This document shows positions 1 to 42,912 of a DNA stretch of 64,000 nt, one piece after another (position 1 is the first letter of the stretch; the number at the start of each line of letters is the position of its first letter). This DNA comes from Escherichia coli (GTDB lineage Bacteria; Pseudomonadota; Gammaproteobacteria; Enterobacterales; Enterobacteriaceae). Made by a program: the position numbers and the translations under genes. The notes below the pieces were generated by a model. That model worked only from the letters and a program-made list of their open reading frames with translations, was not told where the DNA came from and made no database searches. The stretch lies in NCBI RefSeq assembly GCF_050320075.1, contig NZ_CP190018.1. One strand, given 5' to 3'.

Positions 1-1278
1 AACACACAGTAGTGTCCCGTATGGCACGCGGAAACGATATCCTTGCGCGGCAATGGTTGCACTTTCCATATCAATTGCTACGGCCCGGCTTAAGTTAAAA
101 CGAAGTGCAGAAGCTGAGTAACGTAATTCCCAGTTCCTGTCATCTGTGGTTACCACAGTACCAGTACGTAGCCGCTGTTTGACTTCCTCACCGGGCCTGC
201 CGCTGACTAACTTGGTGGCGTCATAAAGCGCACGTTGCACTTCAGCAATACTCGGAATAGGAATATCGGGCGGCAGTACCGCATCAAGAACGTGGTCATC
301 GCGTAAATAAGCGTGTGCAAGTACATAATCTCCAATGGCCTGGCTTTCACGTAAGCCACCACAGTGACCAATCATCAACCAGACATCCGGGCGCAGCACC
401 GCCAGATGATCGCAGATGGTTTTAGCATTTGACGGTCCCACGCCAATATTCACCAGAGTAATACCCTGACCATCGGCGGTAATTAAATGCCATGCGGGCA
501 TCTGGTGTTTTTTCCATGCAAGGTCGGAAATGGCTTCTTCTGGCGCTTCGGTTTCGGCGGTGATCCAGTTCCCGCCAGCACAAGAAAGGGCAATGTAGGG
601 ACTATCAGGATCGAGGATCTGGCTGCATCCCCAACGAACGAATTCATCCACATAACGTGTGTAGTTGGTAAACAAGACGAACGGCTGAAAATGTTCAACT
701 GGCGTACCGGTATAATGGCGCAACCGCGCAAGGGAAAAATCGACGCGGCGCGCATCAAAATGCGATAGCGGGGAGAATTCCGTTGGATGATAAATGCCGT
801 CTGCAGTTTCATCGCCAATTTGCGCCAGTTCTGTTGTCGGGAAATAGCGAGTTAACCCAGCGCTCATTGAGCGATCAAGTGTCAATTCAGAGCCATCGAT
901 GACATAAGGATAAGGGATTTCATGCTGCGAGGGTTGCACCGAGATATGCGCACCATAATCCTGATACAGCAACGTAAGTTGTTCATTGAGATACGAACGA
1001 AAGAGAGTAGGGCGAGTAATCGTGGTGGTGTAGCTGCCTGCGTGGGTAAAACGACCAAATGCGCGCGTTTTGGGGGGATTGGTTGTGCTACCGTCCCAGG
1101 TTACGGTCAGTGATGGATAGACAAAAAGACCTTGTTTGCGGGCGTTTTCATCAGGTAATTCGCCACTTGTAATATATTTGCCAATGGCGTTGCGTAAAGC
1201 GACTACAGATTGCTCATACAGCGCGTCGAGTTTATCCAGTGCCTGAGCTGGGGTCAGACCGGAGCCCTTATTATTCAT
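1..1278 (-). CDS. amn: AMP nucleosidase, N-terminal ~426 codons; 3' end runs off window start
   Basis: Minus-strand frame open to position 1 with ATG at 1278-1276; N-terminus MNNKGSGLTPAQALDKLDALYEQSVVALRNAIG matches my recollection of E. coli Amn. Confidence 0.8.
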   Translation of the reverse strand, partial: MNNKGSGLTPAQALDKLDALYEQSVVALRNAIGKYITSGELPDENARKQGLFVYPSLTVTWDGSTTNPPKTRAFGRFTHAGSYTTTITRPTLFRSYLNEQLTLLYQDYGAHISVQPSQHEIPYPYVIDGSELTLDRSMSAGLTRYFPTTELAQIGDETADGIYHPTEFSPLSHFDARRVDFSLARLRHYTGTPVEHFQPFVLFTNYTRYVDEFVRWGCSQILDPDSPYIALSCAGGNWITAETEAPEEAISDLAWKKHQMPAWHLITADGQGITLVNIGVGPSNAKTICDHLAVLRPDVWLMIGHCGGLRESQAIGDYVLAHAYLRDDHVLDAVLPPDIPIPSIAEVQRALYDATKLVSGRPGEEVKQRLRTGTVVTTDDRNWELRYSASALRFNLSRAVAIDMESATIAAQGYRFRVPYGTLLCV

Positions 1279-13686: not shown

Positions 13687-13776
13687 GGAGAGATGCCGGA
13701 GCGGCTGAACGGACCGGTCTCGAAAACCGGAGTAGGGGCAACTCTACCGGGGGTTCAAATCCCCCTCTCTCCGCCA
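13687..13776 (+). tRNA. serU: tRNA-Ser (CGA), integration target of the prophage
   Basis: GGAGAGATGCCGGAGCGGCTGAACGGACCGGTCTCGAAAACCGG...CTCTCCGCCA, 90 nt with long variable arm; 3' 62 nt repeated at 61595-61656. Confidence 0.9.
13715..13776 (+). repeat. attL core (3' 62 nt of serU)
   Basis: Identical to 61595-61656. Confidence 0.85.
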
Positions 13777-13828: not shown

Positions 13829-14854
13829 TTACTTGGAATATTTTCTTGGAATATTTTCAGGTAACGGGACATCAAGTGTCGGTGAAACTTTAACCTTCCT
13901 GTCATAGATTAGCACTTGCCCCTCGGTTTTGTGACCAGAGAAAAGTTGCTTATCCCGACTGCTTCCTTCATAGTCTGAAATTCCTTTCGCCTTCAGATCA
14001 TGAAAGGTGAAGTCGGTTAAAATACCTGAAATTTTGCCTGCGCGATTTCTTGCTTCTACCCACATTTCGTTAAAGCCTTTGTACATATATCGGTTGCCGT
14101 ATTGATTGCTGATTACATAGGCGGATGTTGGTAACTGTTTTGCTTTTTCGATCGCCGCCTGTAATCGTGGACTCCATGCTTTTATCTGTTTTTTTCCTGT
14201 TTTCCCTTGCTGGATAAAGATCCCGTCGTTTCCAATCTGCTCCCATTTCAGCGATAACACATCGGAAACCCTCGCTGCACACAGATAGGCAATTTCCATT
14301 GCGATAAAAACAGGAAGAGGTGCAACGCTTAATACTGCCTGGTATTCTTTGTCGGTTACATATCGTTCGCGGTTTTTGGCCTTGAATTTACTTACACCTG
14401 CACATGGGTTAGCCTTCACGTACCCTCGCTCATACCCCCAACTGTAAACGCGGGACATACTGCTTTTTTCATGGTTGGCTTGCGTTTTACTCTGTTCCCC
14501 TCTCTTGTCCATGTATCGACGGATGTGTTCTGGTTTTATGGAATCTGCCGGCACCTTACCGAATACGGCAAGCAACTTTTTTTGATGTTGCAGATAATCT
14601 TTTTGTGTTCTTGGACTGAGGTCACTGTAATAGGCGCTGGCGAGGAATTTTTCCCACAAGCGACCGAATGTCATTGCACGATCGCGATTATTTACAGTTT
14701 CCTCATACTTTTTCCATAAAGCAGCTAAACCATCCTTGATGGCGGTTAGTGTTACAGATTCTCTGGATGTTGGTTTCCATACATAACTATATTTATTTGG
14801 GTATACATTTGGAGGTAATTTTTCGTGTTCAGGATTTTTCCTTCGTCTTCCCAT
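13829..14854 (-). CDS. int: Phage integrase, tyrosine recombinase
   Basis: 341-aa ORF immediately adjacent to tRNA att site; typical lambdoid Int length and position. Confidence 0.8.
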   Translation of the reverse strand: MGRRRKNPEHEKLPPNVYPNKYSYVWKPTSRESVTLTAIKDGLAALWKKYEETVNNRDRAMTFGRLWEKFLASAYYSDLSPRTQKDYLQHQKKLLAVFGKVPADSIKPEHIRRYMDKRGEQSKTQANHEKSSMSRVYSWGYERGYVKANPCAGVSKFKAKNRERYVTDKEYQAVLSVAPLPVFIAMEIAYLCAARVSDVLSLKWEQIGNDGIFIQQGKTGKKQIKAWSPRLQAAIEKAKQLPTSAYVISNQYGNRYMYKGFNEMWVEARNRAGKISGILTDFTFHDLKAKGISDYEGSSRDKQLFSGHKTEGQVLIYDRKVKVSPTLDVPLPENIPRKYSK

Positions 14855-31332: not shown

Positions 31333-31797
31333 ATGAACCGCGTACTGTGCGTGGTCATCATTGCCCTGCTGGTGGCCTGTGGTGCGCTTAGTCTGGGGCT
31401 GAATCATTACCGTGATAACGCCATTACCTACAAAGCCCAGCGCGACAAAAATGTCAGAGAACTGAAGCTGGCGAACGCGGCAATTACTGACATGCAGATG
31501 CGTCAGCGTGATGTTGCTGCGCTCGATGCAAAATACACGAAGGAGTTAGCTGATGCGAAAGCTGAAAATGATGCTCTGCGTGATGATGTTGCCGCTGGTC
31601 GTCGTCGGTTGCACATCAAAGCAGTCTGTCAGTCAGTGCGTGAAGCCACCACCGCCTCCGGCGTGGATAATGCAGCCTCCCCCCGATTGGCAGACACCGC
31701 TGAACGGGATTATTTCACCCTCAGAGCGCGACTGATAATAATGCAAAAACAACTTGAAGGGGCACAGCTATACATTCGAGAGCAATGCCTCAGATAA
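31333..31797 (+). CDS. Spanin, inner-membrane subunit (Rz)
   Basis: 154 aa; N-terminal TM then coiled-coil; embedded +1-frame lipoprotein gene. Confidence 0.75.
31553..31735 (+). CDS. Spanin, outer-membrane lipoprotein subunit (Rz1), embedded in Rz
   Basis: 60 aa; lipobox LVVVGC; proline-rich ([15 protein letters not shown]). Confidence 0.65.
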
Positions 31798-32104: not shown

Positions 32105-32530
32105 TTAGTGCGGAAATATTTGTGTAGTGTTCTGAATGTTCTCAGTAAAGAGTAATGAATTATCAAAGGTATAGTAATACCTTTTGTTTTCGTGGATATT
32201 TGTAATCCATCTGAAAACCCCTGCTGTAGCAAGATTTTTCCTGTATTCGTAAAATGATAACTCTCCTGATTTGAATCCTTTTAAGGTGGCTTCTATAAGG
32301 CATTTATTTTTTGAAAATCTTACATTTACAACCTTACCCTGTCCTTTTATTAAAACCGTATTATCGTTTTCAAGAACAAGATGAATATTCTCTGTGGCTA
32401 AATAGTAAATGTAATGTGAGACATTGTGACGTTTTAGTTCAGAATAAAACCAGTGATAGTTTAAATTATTTCGCACTTTATCGAATATTTGTTTAAAAAT
32501 GGCAATCTGAGCCATTGTAGTACCTTCCAT
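32105..32530 (-). CDS. Hypothetical protein, AT-rich moron
   Basis: 141-aa ORF (alternative start at M6, 32515), Tyr/Asn/Lys-rich, ~30% GC, antisense to late operon. Confidence 0.4.
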
Positions 32531-32572: not shown

Positions 32573-32806
32573 TCAATCTGGTCTGACCTGTTTTCTGAGC
32601 AATTCAGTAATGTCACTCTTTTCTTTGTTTGCTTCAGGCGAAACTCTTTTTTCTGAGCACAGTCTCCGGCGGCAGGCTTCAATGACCCAGGCTGAGAAAT
32701 TCCCGGACCCTTTTTGAACAAGAGCGATGTTAATTTGTTCAATCATTTGGTTAGGAAAGCGGATGTTGCGGGTTGTTGTTCTGCGGGTTCTGTTCTTCGT
32801 TGACAT
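32573..32806 (-). CDS. Putative ribbon-helix-helix DNA-binding protein
   Basis: 77 aa; basic N-terminal tail then NIRFPNQMIEQINIALVQKGSGNFSAWVIEACRRRL, RHH-like pattern (inference). Confidence 0.35.
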   Translation of the reverse strand: MSTKNRTRRTTTRNIRFPNQMIEQINIALVQKGSGNFSAWVIEACRRRLCSEKRVSPEANKEKSDITELLRKQVRPD

Positions 32807-33005
32807 GAGGTTGCCCTGTATTCAGTGTCGCTGATTTGTATTGTCTGAAGTTGTTTTTACGTTAGGTTGATGCAGATCAATTAATACGATACCTGCGTCA
32901 TAATTGATTATTTGACGTGGTTTGATGGCCTCCACGCACGTTGTGATATGTAGATGATAATCATTATCGCTTTACGGGTCCTTTCCGGTGATCCGACAGG
33001 TTACG

Positions 33006-33017
33006 GGGCGGCGACCT
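33006..33017 (+). other. cosN 12-nt cohesive end (GGGCGGCGACCT)
   Basis: Matches lambda cohesive end and flanking ...ACAGGTTACG / CGCGGGTTTTCGCTATTTATGAAAATTTTC. Confidence 0.8.
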
Positions 33018-33193
33018 CGCGGGTTTTCGCTATTTATGAAAATTTTCTGGGGAAAATCATGTCGGTACTTCTCGAACATAACTATTTGTTTTTTCTAATA
33101 TCGAATCCGTAAAAGGTCCGACATGAAAACGCCTAAAAAAGTCATTTTCGGGCACTTTCATGTCGGCCCCTGTATTTATTGTGAGACTGTTTC

Positions 33194-33713
33194 ATGAAGG
33201 TTAATAAAAAGAAACTTGCCGAAATTTTCAACGTGGATCCGCGAACGATTGAACGCTGGCAGTCTCAGGGACTCCCTTGCGTCTCCGGAGGTGGTAAGGG
33301 CGTTGAATCTGTATTTGATACCGCCATGGCAATTCAGTGGTATGCGCAGAGGGAAGCTGATATCGAAAATGAAAAACTCCGTAAAGAGGTTGAGGATTAC
33401 AGGGCTGCCAGTGAGGCAGATCTCCAGCCTGGGACTATTGAGTACGAACGCCATCGACTTACGCGTGCGCAGGCCGACGCACAGGAGCTGAAGAATGCCA
33501 GAGACTCCGCAGAGGTGGTGGAAACCGCATTCTGTACTTTCGTGCTGTCACGGATCGCAGGTGAAATTGCCAGTATTCTTGACGGGATCCCTCTCTCGGT
33601 ACAGCGGCGTTTTCCGGAACTGGAAAACCGACATGTTGATTTCCTGAAACGGGATATCATCAAAGCCATGAACAAAGCAGCCGCGCTGGATGAACTGATA
33701 CCGGGGTTGCTGA

Positions 33714-33739
<26 letters not shown>
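33194..33739 (+). CDS. nu1: Terminase small subunit
   Basis: 181 aa, near-identical to lambda Nu1 over most of its length as I recall it. Confidence 0.9.
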
Positions 33740-37420
<3,681 letters not shown>

Positions 37421-39082: not shown

Positions 39083-39229
39083 CTTTACCCTTCATCACTA
39101 AAGGCCGCCTGTGCGGCTTTTTTTACGGGATTTTTTTTATGTCGATGTACACAACCGCCCAGCTGCTGGCGGCAAATGAGCAGAAATTTAAGTTTGATCG
39201 TAAGCGACTCGTCAGAACCGTATTGATAT

Positions 39230-40801
39230 TTACTGAGAGCTCAGATCAACTTTCCAGGGCAACAGATCGCGTACCCGGTTTGCCGGCCAGTCCTGGATAT
39301 GTTCAATGACGTAACGCAGCCACTTTTCTGGCTCCACATTGTTCAGACGGCATGTGCCGATCAGCGAGTACAACACCGCCGCATGTTCACCACCGCTGTC
39401 GGAACCCGCGAACATCCAGTTTTTCCGGCCTACGGCCACTCCCCGTAAGGCGTTCTCTGCGATGTTGTTGTCGATTTCCACCCAGCCATTACTGCAGTAC
39501 ACGTTCAGTGCATCCCACTGTTTCAGCAGGTATGCGAACGCTTTTGCCGTATCTGAGTGACGCGACAGTGTTTTCATCTGTTGCTGTATCCAGTCATACA
39601 GTGACTGCATCAGTGGCGCGGCTCTGGCTTTTCTTGCCGCCAGACGCTGTTCTGCTGAACAGCCCCGGACCTCTGCCTCGATGGCATACAGTTCACCGAT
39701 ACGCTGCAGGGCTTCCGTGGTGATGTAGGTGGGCGCTCTTGCATGCACATCGTGGATTTTTCTCCGGGCATGAGCCATACACGCGGCTTCCGTTATTCTG
39801 CCGGATTCGTATAACGCCCGGTAACCACCGTAAGCATCGGCCTGAAGCACACCGCTGTAACCGGCCAGGTGATTTTGTGGATGGATACCTTTCCGGTCCG
39901 GACTGTACGCGAACCAGACCGCCGGGGGCATCTGTGAACCGGCGTTACGGTCATCACGGACGTAGACCCACAGCCGGGCTGTCCGGGTTTTACCGCTGCC
40001 CGGCTCCTGGACCGGGACGGGGATATCATCAGCATGGACTTTACCGGGCATCAGCACATACTGGCGCAGGACGTCATACAGCGGCTCCAGCAGTTCAGCA
40101 ACAGCACCTGTCCAGCGCCCCAGTGTGGCACGGCTCAGCTCCACTCCCTGACGACGGTATATTTCTGACTGGCGGTATAACGGCAGATGGTCTGCATATT
40201 TCCCGGTGACAACATGGGCCAGAAGCCCCGCTCCGGCATAACTGCGTGCAATGGGTTTTGAAGGTACTGGTGCCTGCACGATATGGTCGCACCGGCAACA
40301 GGCCTGTTTCGGACGTTGTGTTTCGATAACCTTAAAGGCGCTGCTGATAAGCTCCAGTTGCTCTGACACATCACATCCCAGAGAACTGAGTTCACCACCA
40401 CAGGCAGGACAGCATTCCTCTTCCGGCCGGATAACCCGGGTTTCACGGGGAAGTGAGGCCGGTAACGGTTTACGGGCTGAAGACTGGCGCAGGGCGGATG
40501 GCAGTACCGGGTCATATTGCTCACCCAGCGTTTCCGCCATTTCTTCCTGAAGTGCGCTGATTCGCTCCTGTGCTTCCTGTATCTGCCGTTCGGTTTTTGC
40601 ACGAAGTTTTTCTGAGCTTTTACCGAACTGCATACGTTGCAGTTTCGCAACCAGCGCCTTCAGCCGGTTGATTTCGGAAGCATAAGCCGCCACCCGCTGT
40701 GAGAGCAGGCGGTTGTATTCAGCCATCTGGCGGATGGTGTCCTGTTGCGTCTGCAACAGTGCCCGCAGGCGGGCGTTCTCATGAGCAAGTGAGGTGTCCA
40801 T
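39230..40801 (-). CDS. IS66-family transposase (TnpC)
   Basis: 523 aa with coiled-coil N-terminus, Cys-rich zinc motif and DDE core. Confidence 0.85.
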
Positions 40802-40820
40802 ATCCTCACTTTACAACGGG

Positions 40821-41168
40821 TTATATGCGGATTCCAGCGCGTTCCGTTCGTTTCGGGTGCTTCCAGTTGATACCTTCAAGAAGCATGGATAACTGAGCCG
40901 GAGTAAGGTGCACCTTGCCGTCACGGGTGACTGGCCAGACGAAGCGGCCCCGCTCCAGGCGTTTGGTGAAGAGGCACAGTCCGTCACTGTCAGCCCACAA
41001 CACTTTTATCTGGTCACCCCGGCGTCCGCGGAAGATGAACAGGTGTCCGGAGAACGGGTCATCCTTCAGGACGTTCTGAACTTTTGATGCCAGGCCGTTA
41101 AAGCCATTTCGCATATCGGTGATACCTGCAACCAGCCAGATACGCGAACCTGCAGGGAGAGATATCAT
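40821..41168 (-). CDS. IS66 Orf2 (TnpB)
   Basis: 115 aa, conserved IS66 accessory protein. Confidence 0.8.
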   Translation of the reverse strand: MISLPAGSRIWLVAGITDMRNGFNGLASKVQNVLKDDPFSGHLFIFRGRRGDQIKVLWADSDGLCLFTKRLERGRFVWPVTRDGKVHLTPAQLSMLLEGINWKHPKRTERAGIRI

Positions 41169-41845
41169 CAGTGGCTGCTCCCTTTTATTTCGCGGATAAG
41201 TGTCTGTAATAACGCCGGCGTCAGTTTACCTTTAAGCCTGAGAGTTCCGGCCGGCAGAACCAGCTCACAACACAGACTGTCGGACGGTGTATTTATCTGC
41301 TCTGGTTCCTGTGCGGGGGCCGGGATTTTATTATCCGGCTCCGGCGTTAACGTCACGGGAAGCAGTGCCGGCATATTTTTTCCGGAAGGCAGCAGGCCAC
41401 CTTTCCGGTATTGATGGCGCCAGTTGAAGAGCAGGTTATCGTTGATTCCGTTTTCCCGGGCGATCTGCGCCACACAGGCTCCGGGCTGCAGTGACTGCTC
41501 CACTAAGGCGATTTTAAACTCATAAGGGAAGTTGGGCCGCCGGGGACGTTTTTTTACCACGGGGGCTTCGGATATAACGGTGCTTTCAGGACGTACGACT
41601 GGTACCGTGGAAAATTGTCCGTAAAGGCAGGCATCAAGTTCCTGCTCCGACATGCCTGCGGGCAAAGGCCACGAAAGGCCAGCTCTCCGAAAGCGCACGA
41701 ACATACTACAAACTGTTGATTTTGGTACACCCAGGCGACGCCCGGCCACAACCCGGGGTAAATGTTCTTCAAAGTGAAGACGTAAAGCTTCAGTGATCCA
41801 GGTCCGGTGTTTCATACGATAGTGTCCATTAAAAATGATGGACAT
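41168..41845 (-). CDS. IS66 Orf1 (TnpA-like), possibly from internal start
   Basis: 225-aa ORF immediately upstream of Orf2. Confidence 0.6.
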   Translation of the reverse strand: MSIIFNGHYRMKHRTWITEALRLHFEEHLPRVVAGRRLGVPKSTVCSMFVRFRRAGLSWPLPAGMSEQELDACLYGQFSTVPVVRPESTVISEAPVVKKRPRRPNFPYEFKIALVEQSLQPGACVAQIARENGINDNLLFNWRHQYRKGGLLPSGKNMPALLPVTLTPEPDNKIPAPAQEPEQINTPSDSLCCELVLPAGTLRLKGKLTPALLQTLIREIKGSSH

Positions 41846-42912
41846 TATTTTTGTAGAGCCGGAGGAAACAGACCAGACGGTTTAAATGAGCCGGTTACGT
41901 TTGATCCGCTGTTTCTGCGTCTCTTTTTCCGTGAGAGCTATCCCTTCACCACGGAGAAAGTCTATCTCTCACAAATTCCGGGACTGGTAAACATAGCGCT
42001 GTACGTTTCGCCGATTGTTTCCGGTGAGGTTATCCGTTCCCGTGGCGGCTCCACCTCTGAATTTACGCCGGGATATGTCAAGCCGAAGCATGAAGTGAAT
42101 CCGCAGATGACCCTGCGTCGCCTGCCGGATGAAGATCCGCAGAATCTGGCGGACCCGGCTTACCGCCGCCGTCGCATCATCCTGCAGAACATGCGTGACG
42201 AAGAGCTGGCCATTGCTCAGGTCGAAGAGATGCAGGCAGTTTCTGCCGTGCTCAAGGGCAAATACACCATGACCGGTGAAGCCTTCGATCCGGTTGAGGT
42301 GGATATGGGCCGCAGTGAGGCGAATAACATCACGCAGTCCGGCGGCACGGAGTGGAGCAAGCGTGACAAGTCCACGTATGACCCGACCGACGATATCGAA
42401 GCCTACGCGCTGAACGCCAGCGGAGTGGTGAATATCATCGTGTTTGATCCGAAAGGCTGGGCGCTGTTCCGTTCCTTCAAAGCCGTCAGGGAGAAGCTGG
42501 ATACTCGTCGCGGCTCTCATTCCGAGCTGGAGACAGCGGTGAAAGACCTGGGCAAAGCGGTGTCCTACAAGGGGATGTATGGCGATGTGGCCATCGTCGT
42601 GTATTCCGGACAGTACGTGGAAAACGGCGTCAAAAAGAACTTCCTGCCGGACAACACGATGGTGCTGGGGAACACTCAGGCACGCGGTCTGCGCACCTAT
42701 GGCTGCATTCAGGATGCGGACGCACAGCGCGAAGGCATTAACTCCTCTGCCCGTTACCCGAAAAACTGGGTGACCACCGGCGATCCGGCGCGTGAGTTCA
42801 CCATGATTCAGTCAGCACCGCTGATGCTGCTGGCTGACCCTGATGAGTTCGTGTCCGTACAACTGGCGTAATCGTGGCCCTTCGGGGCCATTTTCTCTCT
42901 GTGGAGGAGTCC

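Follow-up and report, generated by a model that had tools for sequence, protein, structure and literature searches.

The cos site analysed here, lying in a lambdoid Escherichia coli prophage within a window of 64 kb (the whole stretch of DNA under study), very probably has the packaging specificity of phage 21 on a packaging motor of lambda type. The segment 33006–33193 can be identified as the cos site of a lambda-like E. coli prophage, with the lysis genes ending near 31.8 kb, cos coming next and the terminase genes thereafter. The initial annotation of this DNA had proposed a packaging specificity distinct from that of lambda within an otherwise lambda-like terminase, a proposal that our results supported: with cosB being only 52% identical to that of lambda, with different boxes and with a different winged-HTH domain in the small terminase, the reading of a non-lambda specificity was correct. 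Repeats, box positions and recognition helix all correspond to phage 21, however, and the specificity is almost certainly the known one of that phage rather than a new one.

The packaging specificities of lambda and 21 make up a textbook system. Both genetic and structural work has characterised the difference between the two (PMC4669245, PMC9026076); with either phage, packaging of the homologous DNA exceeds that of the other phage's DNA more than 1000-fold, and genetic evidence has assigned the discrimination to residues 20 and 24 of the small terminase and to bp 56 and 59 of the R3 box (PMC4669245). Furthermore, a laboratory hybrid from the Feiss laboratory, lambda-21 hy51, carries a chimeric TerS with the N-terminus of 21 and the C-terminus of lambda, and is both viable and 21-specific, serving in that laboratory as the helper of 21 specificity (PMC4669245, PMC9026076). 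The arrangement described in this study is accordingly common and already understood biology, for which hy51 is a direct laboratory precedent of the chimeric terminase.

Features of the cos site

The features of the site are collected in Table 1. The 7-bp cosQ, which is highly conserved (PMC4669245), was invariant in an alignment of the window with the lambda-type DE3, phage 21 and IdasGreatGrand, and its position falls within the element annotated as R4 in M81255. It is found about 30 bp upstream of the 12-nt GGGCGGCGACCT, as in a lambda-like cos site. This cohesive end, annotated as the cos site in DE3 and as bp 1–12 in OL657228, is the same in lambda, 21 and the window, just as the initial annotation had stated with regard to lambda. 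Its further statement that about 40 bp after the cohesive end are also lambda-like held for the identity up to bp 42 and was otherwise slightly generous: compared with DE3, the window was identical from as far upstream as 32915, in cosQ, cosN and I2 (bp 18–50; PMC4856287), through bp 42, with a lone mismatch at bp 43 and a collapse of similarity from bp 46 onwards. Staggered nicking of cosN, giving 12-nt cohesive ends, would be predicted for this site by analogy.

Table 1. Features of the cos site and the terminase genes in the window, together with aligned segments and their identities to lambda and phage 21.
Feature or segment	Position	Strand	Description	Identity to lambda (%)	Identity to phage 21 (%)
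Aligned segment	32915..33005			98.9	60.4
cosQ GGGTCCT	32976..32982	+	Packaging-termination subsite, 7 bp; lambda-type context		
Aligned segment	33006..33050			97.8	88.9
cosN cohesive end GGGCGGCGACCT	33006..33017	+	bp 1–12 of the virion chromosome; 33006 is bp 1		
I2 spacer	33023..33055	+	bp 18–50; left recombination junction at right end, about 33047–33051		
cosB	33051..33193			52.4	80.0
R3 box AATCATGTCGGTACTT	33055..33070	+	bp 50–65; 21-type; predicted critical small-terminase binding site		
I1, predicted IHF site AAACAAATAGTTA	33079..33091	-	bp 74–86		
R2 box TTTCATGTCGGACCTT	33113..33128	-	Inverted relative to R3 and R1		
R1 box TTTCATGTCGGCCCCT	33156..33171	+	Matches the R1 annotated in phage 21, TTTCATGTCGGGCCTT, at 14/16 positions		
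Small terminase, codons 1–64	33194..33385	+	21-type winged-HTH DNA-binding domain	60.9	92.7 (DNA)
Small terminase, codons 65–181	33386..33739	+	Junction, then lambda-type oligomerisation and TerL-binding part		
Aligned segment	33413..33739			96.0	58.7
Large terminase, gpA type	33714..35639	+	641 aa, GTG start; overlaps end of small terminase gene (stop 33739); lambda-type	97.8	65.6 (gene 2; DNA)

Three copies of the octamer CATGTCGG follow, located at 33058–33065 (+), 33118–33125 (-) and 33159–33166 (+). All three had been noticed initially, with the middle one inverted and correctly placed at 33118, whereas the two others had been placed one position off (33059 and 33160 in place of 33058 and 33159). 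It had also been claimed that the lambda R-site motif was replaced, and indeed the lambda R core CGTTTCC did not occur anywhere in 33006–33193, with the other repeat being found at the positions of R3, R2 and R1. The octamer was seen 5 times in the whole 64 kb, as compared with 2.19 expected copies, and the probability of having three of them within 109 bp was about 9e-9, or about 5e-6 when corrected for all positions of the window. A repeat finder independently gave a direct repeat (33044–33065 and 33145–33166) together with inverted repeats around 33118. Considering this corrected probability and the conservation of the boxes amid diverged spacers, we rejected the notion of the trio being a chance repeat.

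When compared with the annotated boxes of phage 21, R3 was identical at 15/16 positions (to AATCGTGTCGGTACTT) and R2 at 16/16, while one of the two differences in R1 was found just after the GG, at a position that is variable among the three boxes of 21 itself. All three boxes of the window have the 21-type core (C/G)(A/G)TGTCGG. The bases at bp 56 and 59 of R3 are both G, as in the R3 of 21, with T and C being the corresponding bases in lambda; bp 54 is A in the window and G in the R3 of 21, with A being present in R2 and R1 of 21. The cores are located at bp 53–60, 113–120 (-) and 154–161 in the window, at 53–60, 112–119 (-) and 153–160 in 21, and at 53–59, 114–120 (-) and 154–160 in lambda. 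The predicted IHF site I1 has one mismatch to WATCAANNNNTTR and is identical at 12/13 positions to the I1 of phage 21 (OL657228), located at the same position. With three R boxes, of which R2 is inverted, an IHF site separating R3 from R2, and the ATG of the small terminase coming next at 33194, the region has the order R3-I1-R2-R1 of a standard lambda-like complex cosB (PMC9026076). The four functional boxes were identical to phage 21 at 58/62 positions, as compared with 58/83 for the spacers (Fisher p=2.6e-4), which is the pattern to be expected if the boxes are selected elements. The IHF-like site I0, annotated in phage 21 immediately ahead of gene 1 (AAACAACCCATTA, differing from the consensus at one position), had no counterpart at 33179–33191, where the corresponding sequence of the window showed at least three mismatches.

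A fourth perfect CATGTCGG was seen at 33628–33635 (-), in that stretch of the small terminase gene which is of lambda type, and lambda Nu1 has this octamer as well. We rejected this copy as an accessory site resembling rR2 of N15, which lies inside gene 1, with the region being of lambda type and the copy being compatible with chance (2.2 per 64 kb).

Mosaic structure of cos and terminase

A three-way alignment of the window with lambda-type DE3 and phage 21 was scored at those sites where lambda and 21 differ. At these informative sites the window was lambda-type up to about 33045, 21-type up to about 33385, and then again lambda-type throughout gpA and past its end, in agreement with the segment identities given in Table 1. 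The switch on the left side separates bp 45 from bp 46, which places it at I2's right end, and the junction on the right side falls within 33386–33412, i.e. codons 64–73, at the end of the DNA-binding domain. Using megablast of 32950–33750 against phage records, the matches of lambda-type phages were split into two segments, together 64% of the query, while the match to phage 21 (M81255) continued across cosB. There was no full alignment to the cosB of lambda (52% over 33051–33193) that could have removed the difference claimed by the initial annotation, and the comparison with the cos region of phage 21 that it had suggested gave a colinear match to both M81255 and OL657228. The cosB boxes, together with the domain reading them, make up a single 21-type segment (about 33046–33385, some 340 bp), which adjoins the conserved cosN-I2 sequence on its left and has lambda-type flanks on both sides. 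A complete left end of phage 21 was rejected as an explanation, with bp 1–45, the upstream region and the small terminase from codon 65 all being of lambda type.

The same mosaic was seen in the encoded small terminase. Among its residues 1–64, 58 match gp1 of phage 21 and 38 match Nu1 of lambda; the 26 residues differing from Nu1 include positions 20, 21 and 24 of the recognition helix, which bears out the earlier remark that the N-terminal HTH differs from that of lambda. The recognition helix (residues 16–27, with E20, R21 and S24) is identical to that of 21 gp1 at 12/12 positions. Structures have been solved for the domains of both phages, covering residues 1–68 for lambda (PDB 1j9i) and residues 1–54 for 21 (7lwr), and the N-terminal domain of the window was 49/54 identical to the latter, the sequence of which equals residues 1–54 of 21 gp1; a literature search for PDB entry 7LWR gave nothing relevant. 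Differences from 21 are found in helix 1 (K7R) and in the wing around Lys35, which reads SGGGKGV as compared with SKGSKGI in 21 (V30A, G32K, G34S and V37I). We also considered whether the lambda-like wing tip GGGKG could be a micro-conversion from lambda, an option that was rejected with ordinary point variation being more likely, in view of the intermediate GGSKG of E. coli 536.

For residues 73–181 the relation is the reverse, with 107/109 residues matching Nu1 and 54/109 matching gp1. The protein as a whole matched the profile Phage_Nu1 (PF07471) over positions 1–164 of 164 (E = 6.9e-91, 302.6 bits with a cut-off of 30). Having a C-terminal domain of lambda type and a length of 181 instead of 182 aa, the small terminase is recognizable as a chimera rather than as a full-length orthologue of gp1. 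The large terminase, with matches to GpA_ATPase (PF05876, 2.2e-50) and GpA_nuclease (PF20454, 1.2e-74), is 91% identical to lambda and 53% identical to phage 21 over its first 80 residues. The C-terminal half of the small terminase and gpA are both of lambda type, and therefore match each other. One divergent patch was noted in gpA at residues 8–21 (33735–33776), as compared with QVNRLRHFVRAGLRSL of lambda in a gpA that is otherwise 98% identical, and this patch is shared with IdasGreatGrand. It is located at the extreme N-terminus of gpA, the region that binds the small subunit.

Compared with the cos region of phage 21 (M81255 and OL657228, with curated R4, I2, R3, I1, R2, R1 and I0), the window hence has the R boxes and I1 in a colinear order, with the same orientation and positions, the same cohesive end, the same gp1 recognition helix and closely similar boxes (R2 identical, R3 15/16, R1 14/16). 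It differs from 21 by its diverged spacers (cosB at 80%), by one extra base between I1 and R2, by the unmatched I0, and by the lambda-type nature of bp 1–45 with the upstream region, of the small terminase from codon 65 and of the large subunit. With lambda, the window shares the tripartite architecture of cosB at the same coordinates and a terminase that is 96–98% identical from Nu1 codon 73 onward, with the differences being CATGTCGG as R core instead of CGTTTCC and 26/64 residues of the DNA-binding domain. A further parallel can be seen in lambda-21 hy51, of which the window arrangement is a natural counterpart: in both cases cosB-21 and the 21 DNA-binding part are fused to the lambda TerL-binding part and combined with lambda gpA. 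However, the whole left end (about 600 bp) was replaced in the hybrid, as compared with only about 340 bp (bp 46 to about 380) in the window with its lambda-type bp 1–45 retained, and the natural 21-like donor is about 7–20% diverged from phage 21 itself.

Distribution and predicted packaging specificity

Among 5,426 complete genomes of E. coli, 539 matched the 771-bp module over at least 80% of its length; identity reached 99% or more in 115 records, and in many unrelated E. coli strains the module was 100% identical. The sequenced phage IdasGreatGrand (PP925829) carries it at 99% identity, its small terminase being the same protein and its 641-aa ORF for gpA being intact, and the same chimera was seen in the sampled O157 180-PT54, E. 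coli 536 and strain 144. IdasGreatGrand and the prophages of O157:H7, 536, strain 144 and Ec-U3 share the cosB subtype and the chimeric 181-aa small terminase with the window at 99–100%, but differ from it upstream of cosQ and elsewhere in the genome, as lambdoid phages, being mosaics, would be expected to.

Using cosB alone (33046–33193) as query we found 1,213 genomes, divided into two discrete subtypes with almost nothing between them. The window-like subtype (at least 95% identity) comprised 566 records, including O157:H7 strains and E. coli 536, with the sampled members (O157 180-PT54 and E. coli 536) encoding the 181-aa chimera. The 21-like subtype, at 80–90% identity to the window, comprised 627 records, including Nissle 1917 and ABU 83972, with the sampled members (Nissle 1917 and M719) encoding the full 182-aa gp1. 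About one-fifth of the complete E. coli genomes thus carry a 21-type cosB, and about one-tenth the chimeric version.

The type of box and the type of helix were found to segregate together. Eighty IMG/VR loci were retrieved by alignment of the small terminase, all with a C-terminus of lambda type. The helix RTIERWQSQ was found in 21 of these loci, each with three CATGTCGG and no GTTTCC upstream, and the helix RTIQNWQ(E/D)Q in 58 loci, with two to three GTTTCC and no CATGTCGG; a mismatch between repeat type and helix type was never seen among these 79 IMG/VR loci, although the loci from IMG/VR and E. coli are close relatives, so that the counts reflect co-inheritance and not independent events.

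Two further observations were made among these relatives. In PhiR5_1 (PV340545, L007; 1489–2225), the R boxes GCATGTCAGTTCTTCT, CTGATGTCGTTTCT (reverse complement) and TTTCATGTCGTAACT have a 21-like CATGTC core with a lambda-like TTCT tail, and the recognition helix reads RTIDRWQTQG (D20, T24); this phage may represent yet another packaging specificity among the lambdoid phages of E. coli. In many IMG/VR loci, moreover, GGGCGGAAGGCG replaced GGGCGGCGACCT some 190 bp ahead of the gene for the small terminase, occurring together with either 21-type or lambda-type cosB (L019-L024, L033, L035, L042, L046, L049, L060-L062, L064, L073, L075, L076 and L082), and additional variants of the cohesive end were GGGCGACGACCT (L043), GGGCGGTGACCT (L067) and GGGCGGCGTCCG (L085). 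This suggests that the alleles of cosN and cosB assort independently.

With regard to specificity, the window has the determinants of the 21 type, i.e. E20 and S24 in the helix together with G and G at bp 56 and 59 of R3, and lacks those of lambda, with CGTTTCC being absent from 33006–33193, Q20 and E24 being replaced by E20 and S24, and cosB being 52% identical. From these determinants, and from the viable precedent of hy51, we conclude that the site in all likelihood follows the specificity of 21 on a lambda-type motor. Binding and cutting at this cos site, as well as discrimination against lambda including the more than 1000-fold preference, would be expected by analogy with the characterised phages. 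The specificity may nevertheless not be fully equivalent to that of 21, since both the spacers and the wing differ from those of 21 and cosB is 80% identical overall.

A mechanism can be drawn by homology with lambda and 21 (PMC9026076, PMC4856287, PMC4669245). IHF would bend the DNA at I1, making R3 and R2 face each other, whereupon a dimer of the 21-type winged-HTH domains of the small terminase would dock on the CATGTCGG boxes by means of the recognition helix. The C-terminal portion of the small terminase, being of lambda type, would hold the lambda-type gpA, and gpA positioned in this manner would nick cosN accurately, with packaging starting rightwards.

Other readings of the data were weighed against this one. 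One of them, a third packaging specificity that is related to that of 21 but where the terminases of 21 and the window discriminate against each other's DNA, we regard as quite unlikely. It would agree with the two well-separated 21-type cosB subtypes in E. coli (566 versus 627 records), with the four differences from 21 in the wing flanking Lys35 and its lambda-like GGGKG tip, with the A in place of G at bp 54 of R3, and with the intermediate flavours of box and helix that PhiR5_1 shows to occur in nature. However, an A at this position is found already in R2 and R1 of 21, one wing difference is bridged by the natural intermediate SGGSKG of E. coli 536, and the recognition helix (12/12), the critical bp 56 and 59 and the R2 box (16/16) are all as in 21. 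It is likewise unlikely, in our judgement, that the window belongs to a widespread natural lineage in which the divergence of cosB (80%) and of the wing signifies either a partly separate third specificity or wing and minor-groove contacts that are freely changeable; if this were true, in either version, cosB and the reader domain would move together in the wild, as one segment of some 340 bp, from one lambdoid packaging motor to another. To the possibility of a diverged lambda cosB that has kept the lambda specificity, or of octamers being a chance repeat, we give practically no credence. Although cosN, cosQ, I2 and the C-terminal parts of the terminase are of lambda type, identity of cosB to lambda is only 52%, the CGTTTCC core is absent and the helix carries S24 and E20 in place of E24 and Q20 of lambda, where Glu24 of lambda has been inferred from genetics to clash with the G-C pair at bp 56 of R3-21 (PMC4669245). 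The alignments together with the clustering statistic (about 5e-6) ruled out both of these options.

It could also be argued that the prophage is defective and its cos and terminase module an inert relic, being either non-functional or free of selection. The prophage does have an ISCro1 element at 39200–41894 in capsid gene E, at codon 17–20, and its integrase has been annotated as frameshifted in NZ_CM192149. We nonetheless consider this reading of the module highly improbable, with cosQ, cosN, R3, R2, R1, I1 and the ORFs of both terminase subunits being intact, the module recurring at 100% identity in many E. coli strains that are unrelated and at 99% in a sequenced phage, and the conservation of the boxes exceeding that of the spacers. 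Furthermore, a 21-specific helper could still cut the cos site of a defective prophage.

The window also provides a clear case from nature in which a DNA site has been exchanged together with the domain that reads it, at a protein-domain boundary. As a discovery it carries little weight, the sequence being present in hundreds of public genomes and the lambda/21 pair being well known; only the natural chimeric lineage as such offers a mildly new angle, as we found no published description of it in the literature that was searched, with the matches being laboratory hybrids only. The practical bearing is modest and concerns the range of co-resident prophages, cosmids or phage-inducible islands open to cross-packaging.

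State of the prophage and its surroundings

The ISCro1 element, which belongs to the IS66 family and carries tnpA, tnpB and a transposase gene, is inserted into gene E, for the major capsid protein, at its 5' end. Its transposase ORF occupies 39230–40801 (-), and homology to lambda gpE does not begin before residue 19. Formation of capsids of its own is therefore probably impossible for the prophage, in spite of cos and both terminase genes being intact. The prophage adjoins tRNA-Ser(cga) (13687–13776) and mtfA, with an integrase ORF at 13829–14854 (-). The integrase frameshift annotated in NZ_CM192149, a record that is 99.994% identical to the window over 7100–56900, adds another indication of prophage decay, and this copy is probably defective. 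Owing to the insertion in gene E together with the frameshifted integrase, the cos site of the window may no longer serve self-packaging.

Upstream of cos, the region of the Rz-like lysis gene (31333–31797 / 31553–31735) has a proline-rich, lipoprotein-like ORF embedded in the +1 frame, which reads as the usual Rz/Rz1 spanin arrangement. Downstream of the Rz-like gene, on the opposite strand, a DUF1398 gene (32105–32530) and a YlcI/YnfO (DUF3950) gene (32573–32806) were found.
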